A stretch of DNA of 20,000 bases from an uncultured virus (IMG/VR IMGVR_UViG_3300025096_000011) (taxonomy: Duplodnaviria; Heunggongvirae; Uroviricota; Caudoviricetes): IMG/VR virus record IMGVR_UViG_3300025096_000011. The stretch is one strand, 5' to 3'. Made by a program: the position numbers and the translations under genes. Within the stretch, counting starts at the first letter, position 1, and each line of letters opens with the position of its first letter. This document shows positions 17,639 to 20,000 of the stretch, one piece after another. Under the pieces are notes generated by a model. That model ran no database searches, had not been told where the DNA came from, and saw only the letters and a program-made list of their open reading frames with translations.

Positions 17639-17811
17639 AGCCGGTGGGCAAGACAACAAACATGCAAGACAACGTTCAAGATACCGGCTAAACCGATTGT
17701 ATCAGGGGGCGGGGCAAATGCCCAGGTAAAGTCCTCCCCCCACCCGGTAGGAATCGCCCATGCTCACGCTCCGAGATGGGAACAGACGATGTGGGTGGGG
17801 GGAGAACCTGG
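17596..17811 (-). ncRNA. Candidate structured RNA: array of three large hairpins
   Basis: 15-bp stem (17596-17638), 8-bp perfect stem TAGCCGGT/ACCGGCTA (17638-17690), and a ~90-nt stem-loop (17722-17811) with a 12-bp perfect CTCCCCCCACCC/GGGTGGGGGGAG helix. Confidence 0.5.
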
Positions 17812-17836
17812 ACGTTATTTCTTATCCGCCATGTCG

Positions 17837-18118
17837 TTAATACTCTCGACAACTGTGGATAATGCAGTCATGCCACTTCCAGTCCTTGGTCATGTAGTCA
17901 ATCAACTCTTTATTACGCGCAAACTTAAACGTAGGTATGAAGTGCATATCGGCTCGGAAGTCCTTGCACAGTTGAGTAATCTTACAGACGTACCGCTTGT
18001 TGTCATACTGCAATATCCAAGACCCATCGTCTGTTTGCGCGGTAACCTGCCCCTCAACTTGCTGAGTTGCGGCGGCTGGTTGACTAAGTAACATCATCAG
18101 TAGCAAAAGACCTCTCAT
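17837..18118 (-). CDS. Small predicted exported protein, 93 aa
   Basis: Signal-peptide-like N-terminus MRGLLLLMMLLSQPAAA. ATGA-coupled to the upstream gene. Four Cys. Confidence 0.6.
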   Translation of the reverse strand: MRGLLLLMMLLSQPAAATQQVEGQVTAQTDDGSWILQYDNKRYVCKITQLCKDFRADMHFIPTFKFARNKELIDYMTKDWKWHDCIIHSCREY

Positions 18119-20000
18119 AGTTCATCCTCTCTTTGTGACCGTACAGCGGCAGCAGCAGGAACGGCGGCACCTGCGCCATACAATCCGGTAGGCTTAAACT
18201 CACCGGTTACCTTACCTAAGTCCGGCGCATCAGCCGCCAACTTTAATGACGAATCATCGATCGCAATAATCGACAACGAGCCTGGGTCCTCAGCTATGTT
18301 CGTATAGATAACGCCATCAAACCCGTGCTTTTTGTAAATATCGCGTACCGACTGTGCTTCTACCGCCTCATTTAACCTGAGATTGGCTGACCCGTCCCAA
18401 TCTAATCCCGCGTTGCGTACCCTTAACTCGGCATCATCGAGATACTTTTTTAGGTCTGCCGCAAACTTTTTCTCATTCAGTCTCTCAGCAGACTTAATCG
18501 AGTCAAGTAGGACAGACTTTGCGCCCCACCCATATCCGTCAGGTAAAGGTAGTAGTTTATTGTACTTAAAGTAGAACACACGCTCCGCGTCATACGAAGG
18601 CTGAATCCTACCCTGACCGATAGGGTGGGGTGGTGGTTTTGGCTCAAATGGGTTTGCTAACTCATCGGCCCGAGAGGACCGTGCAAGCCGATACTCACGG
18701 TGTTGAGCAGCTTCTGTCGTCCCTGCGTGAAATCCGAACGAACGCCCCGCATCGTAGTCTATTGTAGTGCCGCGCATACCAGGGGTACTATGGTGAACAA
18801 CAAGCACATCTGGAGTGTACGCTACTTGATCGATATACTTTAAGTTATCGGGATTCGGAACTTGGGCAAGAAGTCGCTTATATGCGTCCGCGTACTTGTC
18901 GTTTAGCGCCTCCCTTGAATAGTTCTCCCAACCTGCATTGTCTCCTGTACTCAGCTTCGGTGTAAGACTTTCGGAAGGGATTTGTGTTGGTTCTATGCCG
19001 CCACTCCACCGCTTGAAGTGCGGCGACTCTATGCCCTTCTCTACCCATAGAGCCTTGGCTTCTTCAATCTCCGCTGGAGTGTAAGCCCCAGCAGTAGCGA
19101 TATCTGTGGCGGCGGGGGGCTTGATATTCGATCCCCAATAACCCCACTCCATAAGGTCATCGCCTGCCCAGTTAATATCTCGAAGCGGAACCTCGACGGC
19201 TACAACGTGCCAGTCCTCCTCACCAAATGCGTGATCTTCGGCATAAGTTTTAGATGGTGTCACCCAGTTACCCTTCTCAATCGTGCTTCCTGCGCTTTTT
19301 GGCATCGCTCGATAAATAGTAACCTTGGCGTCTGGATTCCCTGAGCCTGCTACAACCTTTTTCCAAAACTTCTGTGCTTCCTTGTCCTTACGCCAGTCGG
19401 TCGGGCTTCCGACGTACCAGTCTGGATGCTGAAGAATGTCTTTTGGAAAGTCGTCTGTAATGCCAATCTCGTCACCAGATGGGCCCTTCAAAGGTTGATG
19501 ACTCACCCGATAGTCGTCTGACTCTGCGGCGGGGTGCTTGGTCCGCCGCATGTTTAAGCTACCACCTTCGTCTTTCCAAAGTTGGGCAAGATCATCAAAC
19601 TCCATGTCCGTGTCTTGGTGGCGAAAACCCTTGTTGTGAAACACTTTCAATGACGCCAAACTCGACACTTGAGCGGATATTTCTTTGTCTGGATACGCTC
19701 TGAGGACTTCGTCGACAAGTTGACTACCTACACCTTGGCCCCGCTTTGATTCATCGACGACAAACTCGAAAATAGAATGAGCGTGATTGGGGGAAAAGGG
19801 AGAATCTTCAAACACCTCAATCTTCCCGCCAGGTAGGGAAAATACACTCGATGTCACTTTGTTTTGGCCGATAGTCTTTACTGTTTTGACCGGAGTTATC
19901 TTGGCGGCGGGGGGCTTGGCTGCGGTCGAGCCCGGGCGGGCAAACTCGGGTTCTACAACCTCAAGCCGATCAGAAAACTTACGGGGATTTTCTCTGTAGA
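18115..20000 (-). CDS. Polyvalent protein, C-terminal part: GNAT acetyltransferase + R-S/T-E-type ART-like domain + ART-PolyVal-like domain (5' end lies beyond the window)
   Basis: The frame stays open from 19857 to the edge (..YRENPRKFSDRLEVVEPEFARPGSTAAKPPAAKITPVKTVKTIGQNKV..). GNAT motif A VDESKRGQGVGSQL. Second domain VTIYRAM..GNWVT..YAEDH..EWGY. Third domain SPHFKRW..VVHHS..GFHAGT..AA..R..GFDGVIYTN..E.PGSLSII. Confidence 0.75.
   Translation of the reverse strand, partial: YRENPRKFSDRLEVVEPEFARPGSTAAKPPAAKITPVKTVKTIGQNKVTSSVFSLPGGKIEVFEDSPFSPNHAHSIFEFVVDESKRGQGVGSQLVDEVLRAYPDKEISAQVSSLASLKVFHNKGFRHQDTDMEFDDLAQLWKDEGGSLNMRRTKHPAAESDDYRVSHQPLKGPSGDEIGITDDFPKDILQHPDWYVGSPTDWRKDKEAQKFWKKVVAGSGNPDAKVTIYRAMPKSAGSTIEKGNWVTPSKTYAEDHAFGEEDWHVVAVEVPLRDINWAGDDLMEWGYWGSNIKPPAATDIATAGAYTPAEIEEAKALWVEKGIESPHFKRWSGGIEPTQIPSESLTPKLSTGDNAGWENYSREALNDKYADAYKRLLAQVPNPDNLKYIDQVAYTPDVLVVHHSTPGMRGTTIDYDAGRSFGFHAGTTEAAQHREYRLARSSRADELANPFEPKPPPHPIGQGRIQPSYDAERVFYFKYNKLLPLPDGYGWGAKSVLLDSIKSAERLNEKKFAADLKKYLDDAELRVRNAGLDWDGSANLRLNEAVEAQSVRDIYKKHGFDGVIYTNIAEDPGSLSIIAIDDSSLKLAADAPDLGKVTGEFKPTGLYGAGAAVPAAAAVRSQREDEL
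19107..19918 (-). repeat. Dispersed in-frame direct repeat CAAGCCCCCCGCCGCCA (K-P-P-A-A) at domain junctions, 3 copies
   Basis: TGGCGGCGGGGGGCTTG is identical at 19107-19123 and 19902-19918. GCGGCGGGGTGCTTG at 19526-19540 matches 14/15. Spacings are 378 and 417 bp. Confidence 0.85.

Follow-up and report, generated by a model that had tools for sequence, protein, structure and literature searches.

Why should the enzymatic domains of a large phage protein be separated by copies of the same GC-rich DNA word? The window, by which we mean the whole 20,000-nucleotide stretch analysed here, makes up the final 20 kb of a phage contig of 65,086 bp and raises this question through a reading frame (18115-19998, minus strand) that is open at the contig end. 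The initial annotation, made from the letters alone, proposed that the repeat is a recombination site at which domains are exchanged in frame, and this proposal is supported by precise deletions between alleles, by junction contigs in sequencing run X1 and by fixed codons. Cassettes are present or absent precisely at the repeat, alternative forms coexist in one run, the repeat is conserved at the DNA level, and cassettes are reordered in distant phages. We therefore consider it probable that the repeat acts as an in-frame joint in the DNA, at which alleles and phages differ in the presence, absence or order of whole cassettes, likely as a result of short-homology recombination without a dedicated recombinase.

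The genome encodes a terminase and a portal protein, both inside the window, as in the portal-terminase packaging of phages with polyvalent proteins. A family-A-like DNA polymerase, a primase-helicase, a Sak4-like annealing protein (E 1e-9), an exonuclease and a RusA-like resolvase are also encoded. The 1522-aa protein P0002 holds the window's protein unchanged, and sequence comparison showed that contig L021 overlaps both ends of our contig, so that the genome closes at about 72 kb. The sequencing runs that covered the phage best were marine. In the host search, a composite DNA pattern gave no matches in a collection of genome contigs, and a protein scan recovered a single actinomycete MAG contig with an uninformative 40% match to the ART-fold domain only. 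Comparable repeats were absent from the other large reading frames of the genome, including a second large protein (C1:30431-38488 on the phage's own contig, 2685 aa) with a peptidase M23 and a GNAT domain. Outside the window, at C1:4072-6951, eight copies of GGAGGTGAGTGATG (at most two mismatches) stand ahead of successive small genes; this word combines a ribosome site with a stop/start overlap and may mark a second, gene-level cassette array. Palindrome-like direct repeats of 16-17 nt in the long non-coding start of the contig (C1:615-1066) are possibly origin or regulator sites. In run X3, short contigs derived from other sequences pile up in large numbers at 17736-17817 of the window, downstream of the 93-aa neighbour of the gene, which suggests a conserved non-coding element.

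The repeats were rechecked and stand as first described: CAAGCCCCCCGCCGCCA occurs identically at 19918-19902 and 19123-19107, and CAAGCACCCCGCCGC (14/15) at 19540-19526. All three copies, spaced 378 and 417 bp apart, are in frame with the gene and encode KPPAA, KHPAA and KPPAA, respectively. The degenerate 16-mer has three occurrences compared with none in 200 shuffles, and no further match in the 65,086-bp contig at up to two mismatches. A scan for another copy beyond the window's end had been suggested, and P0002 indeed carries, upstream, KPPAS at residue ~737.

Table 1. Cassettes and joints of the polyvalent protein gene, in window coordinates.
Feature	Position	Strand	Remarks
Polyvalent protein gene, 3' 627 codons of 1522 aa (P0002)	18115..19998	-	Runs past contig end; upstream part read in L021
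End of cassette C0, helical domain	19919..20000	-	Commonest cassette in family
Joint copy 1 (KPPAA)	19902..19918	-	Left end of 795-bp deletion; contig fork in run X1
GNAT acetyltransferase cassette	19541..19901	-	Pfam PF13673/PF00583 over cut-off; missing in P0003, L021, L022
Joint copy 2, degenerate (KHPAA)	19525..19540	-	1 base off consensus in first 15
Predicted ART-fold cassette (C6)	19124..19524	-	Structure model; 82% identical copies in P0004, P0005, P0006
Joint copy 3 (KPPAA)	19107..19123	-	Right end of deletion; 3 different upstream sequences converge in X1
Constant C-terminal part	18115..19106	-	35-aa shared lead, ART-PolyVal-like domain, short Ala-rich tail

The GNAT domain assigned to the first interval was recovered by PF13673 (E 6e-6, 26.6 bits, cut-off 23.6). 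An ART-like domain had been proposed for the second; the matches listed for its structure model (pLDDT 85) are nearly all to ADP-ribosyltransferase-fold chains, but they are weak (best Z 5.3, rmsd 2.7, 73 aligned residues; best Foldseek E 0.07) and there is no Pfam match. Likewise, the ART-PolyVal-like part aligns to relatives bearing PF18760, which was found in five of them (hhalign 98.6%, a score that comes partly from the shared 35-aa lead), but has no direct PF18760 match. At least two unrelated enzymatic domains, the hallmark of a polyvalent protein, are therefore present in one polypeptide, the GNAT domain over the Pfam cut-off and the ART-fold domains as predictions. Cassette C0 is an all-helical domain of ~180 aa with invariant E-x-[VI]-G-D and Y-A-x-x-H-R motifs (alignment A2, window 19919-20000 with relatives). 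It is widespread in phage proteins and without a Pfam family; fold comparison gave generic helical-bundle matches only (best Z 8.9) and Foldseek none. Loci L120-L123 stop after C0, and L124 continues into an ART-PolyVal-like domain. Other in-frame direct repeats flank C0 in L124 (19 nt, residues 376 and 610) and L125 (up to 44 nt identical, ~1380-1990).

Four alleles of the gene, at least 99% identical, differ by three indels, two of which use a repeat. P0003 (1166 aa), L021 and L022 (1063 aa) show the precise copy 1-to-copy 3 deletion: they lack 265 codons and are at least 99% identical elsewhere. The deleted 795 bp correspond to the GNAT and ART-fold domains and have the 17-nt direct repeats CAAGCCCCCCGCCGCCA at their ends. 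L022 is additionally without a 309-bp (103-codon) cassette bounded by an identical 17-mer, CTGCCGACGTAGCCAAG, which overlaps the joint, the register shifting between the two events. The prediction that breakpoints of domain gain or loss fall at the repeat thus holds for the 795- and 309-bp indels but fails for the third, of 273 bp (91 codons; absent in P0003, L022 and run X2), which ignores the repeat and has only three shared bases. Directly before this indel lies a GGTP tandem linker (L021:9540-9590). L022 at first follows L021, but ahead of the joint five informative bases in a row agree with L014 instead; as judged from these bases, the patch is a short piece from another lineage that ends at the joint.

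Run X1, which may be the source sample of the contig, contains both forms: its contigs end at 19123 and 19902, forking at both repeats. A 43-nt record spans the L021 deletion junction without mismatch at a depth of 7.2, compared with 6.9 and 9.1 for the cassette-bearing records and 13.1 and 14.5 for the flanks; as per-contig means with no genome count, these depths only suggest comparable abundance. With an assembler k of 31, which we take to be the value used, a 17-nt repeat would give a junction record of exactly 43 nt. In the same run, a third, unrelated upstream sequence joins copy 3 at a depth of 2.1, and a contig break straddles copy 2, the other branch being absent among the records listed. 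Contig L010/L013 also starts exactly at copy 3. The 309-bp cassette appears as a retained record and a skipping loose end both in X1 and in X2, a run from a different study; the ART-fold cassette is present in X2, with no 795-bp junction among the records listed for that run. Runs X5-X24, with small shares, were kept out of the evidence, and X11 gave no cover. The initial annotation had suggested a search for repeat-to-repeat junctions. The deletion type was found in the X1 contigs, but the excised-circle type occurs in none of the run contigs, in which rare forms are dropped, and the X1 record 19519-19931 is unbroken through copy 1.

The same joint is found in other phages. Loci from DNA-pattern scans, in which most single matches were due to chance and in unrelated contigs (61 stretches in one scan), were kept only with a protein match to the family; L095, with one KPPAA and no family match, was left out. 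When 21 proteins, four of them alleles of the window's gene, were split at linker-like peptides, several cassettes recurred: C0 17 times, including a tandem pair in three genes, C6 and a DUF5591-like cassette four times each, and others twice. Their order varies. C6 lies before the DUF5591-like cassette in P0004 and P0005 and after it in P0006, and cassette A precedes C0 in the window's gene and follows it in P0010. Compared with P0004, which has one QPPAAA, P0005 has an extra 186-aa cassette (C0) between two. The same joint word is present in three phage lineages. Among the other joint carriers with a retrieved terminase, identity to the window's terminase is 21-23%; these carriers themselves fall into two groups about 70% apart. 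L024 and L104, with terminases 99.8% identical, have different cassette arrays. Against our reading, L017 and L027 have cassette A in common and the joint only in decayed form. We also considered whether the joint is intrinsic to its domains; this was ruled out, as 0 of 21 further C0-bearing reading frames of more distant phages carry it (27 loci minus six already-known carriers, several of the 21 being duplicates). The joint therefore marks a gene pool and not a domain.

That conservation acts on DNA was an inference from two identical copies and is now borne out more broadly. Among linkers chosen by peptide alone, KPP[AT][ASP], all 24 in distinct contexts read C AAG CCC CCC (background 0.039 each), so that synonymous codons are fixed; as the linkers share ancestry, these counts are non-independent events. 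The same holds for 13 of 13 linkers in loci found by protein search, compared with 0 of 10 control KPP sites in other long reading frames, six of which are an orthologous terminase motif with four codon strings in six phages. Four degenerate joints outside the peptide definition (KHPAA, two KPTAA and KPAAT) differ by two to three bases. Fourfold codon agreement was 813/902 (0.90) between linkers of different genes, compared with 466/1270 (0.37) and 0.31 for distant C0 pairs and 0.82 for close ones. DNA homology ends within 45 nt of a joint in 38 of 120 cases, compared with null means of 9.2 and 17.3 (maxima 19 and 31 in 2000 draws; sequence pairs not independent). The other 82 ends are away from the core, many of them falling in the N-terminal backbone or on conserved neighbour words such as GARAAK.

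How might the cassettes move? A crossover between two joints would delete or duplicate a cassette, by replication slippage or through annealing by the phage's Sak4-like protein with its exonuclease. A joint-cassette-joint fragment from a co-infecting phage could anneal in the same way and add or replace a cassette. With all joints in the same frame and translated as a Pro/Ala linker, any product would remain an open, foldable protein. Seventeen nucleotides is short for annealing proteins, which counts against the annealing route. Such proteins are described as promoters of recombination when substrates have diverged (PMC5499656). Within one gene, variant joints match each other exactly, over 17 nt in L030 and over 35 nt in L104; together with the other repeats around C0 in L124 and L125, this is as homology dependence predicts. 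By analogy with the polyvalent family (PMC5512222; PMC7824862), the protein may enter the virion and be injected, and the GNAT and ART-fold domains may then modify host or defence proteins, in which case a mixture of alleles would hedge against variable hosts. The joint is likely a common recombination point for reshuffling the phage's host-modifying payload.

The alternative that survives best places the specificity in the sequence itself, the core CAAGCCCCCC being the recognition or cut site of a recombinase or nuclease from the phage, a helper or the host, and the cassettes moving as circles in integron style. The 10-nt core is invariant in all 24 KPP-type linkers while their flanks vary, and one word serves three phage lineages. 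Several junctions also have a sharp 5' edge at C|AAG, which would also fit a sequence-directed cut. However, tyrosine (PF00589) and serine (PF00239) recombinases gave no matches in the 92%-complete contig, although such an enzyme may act in trans, and the tested gap ORFs were without a family match. The check for a recombinase or annealing protein thus returned only the Sak4-like protein. Across 29 junction windows there is no conserved hairpin or dyad, and no common fold. L030 and L104 have variant cores that work in pairs, the 309-bp cassette uses a shifted register, and no circle junction was seen at assembled depth. Given that variant joints pair, the register shifts, recombinase and shared hairpin are lacking and a Sak4-like protein is present, identity between copies appears to outweigh a fixed site, and we regard a site-specific enzyme as unlikely. 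The invariant core and the C|AAG edge nevertheless lend a sequence-directed route some plausibility. In its widest form, unrelated phages of one host would share a plug standard in which a factor of host or phage acting at CAAGCCCCCC moves mobile, possibly circular, in-frame effector cassettes. This is a fairly unlikely scenario; if true, it would amount to an integron-like system inside a single gene, with phage populations kept as payload mixtures.

Short-homology recombination must also be weighed against the view that old insertions or duplications left the repeats behind as passive scars, which now only cause frequent neutral deletions, gain and exchange no longer taking place. Direct repeats favour deletion even when there is no selection, and the allele differences seen directly can all be read as losses. 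Distant phages, however, hold the same cassettes in different orders and protein backbones, the inter-lineage patch of L022 ends at the joint, and synonymous sites of the joint are fixed where cassette interiors are saturated. This view therefore seems very unlikely. A peptide signal (protease site or spacer) or translation signal (pause or frameshift), to which DNA identity would be secondary, appears more improbable still. Polyvalent proteins have been proposed to be processed (PMC5512222), and KPPAA does sit between domains. But the wobble base before its lysine is C in 24 of 24 linkers though the preceding residue varies, synonymous sites are kept even where residues have drifted (H, T, S, P, Q), and stops in the other frames show no conserved distance. 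A repeated peptide in L016 (6507-9509) shows the synonymous changes expected: three copies of the GGPYIGPRGGKWAD module, two of them flanking an ART-fold domain, vary at synonymous sites and are therefore treated as a peptide repeat, likely a peptide-level signal; the three-copy repeat was found in no other viral contig searched. Finally, although all data are metagenomic assemblies and GC-rich repeats favour template switching, an assembly or library artefact is hardly credible, given that the 795-bp deletion recurs in three separate assemblies, in two of them together with linked substitutions next to the joint, that the second cassette forks in two studies and that the boundaries are the same in distant phages.

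Joints visible in DNA bear on how polyvalent proteins gain and reorder unrelated domains, a question standing since their description. Here, a single sample contains the alternative forms together, and a common pool of cassettes serves phages whose packaging genes are unrelated. Searching metagenomes for the joint could also yield naturally occurring, self-contained effector domains, the uncharacterised helical C0 being one example. As in the polyvalent proteins of Iyer et al. (2017, PMC5512222), a large protein of a portal-terminase phage unites unrelated enzymatic domains, here GNAT, predicted ART-fold and, in relatives, ART-PolyVal domains. The main text of that paper, in which the words 'linker' and 'shuffl' do not occur, raises cassette recombination only as a possibility for a Verrucomicrobium locus and describes no DNA joint. 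In agreement with the claim of novelty, our literature search, with subscription papers and supplements outside its scope, found no DNA joints in polyvalent proteins.

Integron gene cassettes form an ordered array of exchangeable modules with a recurring site at each boundary. The modules here are likewise ordered, exchangeable and bounded by a recurring site; unlike in integrons, there is no integrase in the 92%-complete contig and no attC-like hairpin, and the modules are domains in one reading frame. In T4-type phages, PeSL cassettes similarly use conserved short sequences as exchange points, but these are intergenic and shuffle whole genes, with circles demonstrated (PMC2839356), whereas our joints are in-frame and circles were not seen in contigs. 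Conserved motifs of the gp38 adhesin are also short exchange points, but swap homologous loops (PMC3157838). In contrast to both, whole unrelated domains are exchanged in frame here. The closest likeness is to domain movement (DoMo) in specificity genes of Type I/IIG restriction-modification systems (Furuta et al., 2011, PMC3077401), where in-gene direct repeats flank domains and recombination at these repeats is inferred to relocate, remove or add them. The same features were found here: flanking direct repeats within the gene, the same domain at different positions, and gain or loss at repeats. In DoMo, homologous TRDs move between two slots that have repeats of 37 and 49 bp, and do so within bacterial species (PMC3077401); the present cassettes are non-homologous (GNAT, ART-fold, DUF5591-like and helical domains) and not TRDs of a restriction-modification specificity subunit, with a ~17-nt joint, a variable number of slots and sharing among phages of ~22% terminase identity. 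The joint system works like DoMo, as in H. pylori hsdS, but belongs to no hsdS system. As a general mechanism, domain movement at flanking repeats is already known from other gene families; what sets the present case apart is the movement of unrelated domains within one phage reading frame across distant lineages. It also shows cassettes gained or lost precisely between alleles that are nearly identical, and contigs that fork within a single run.
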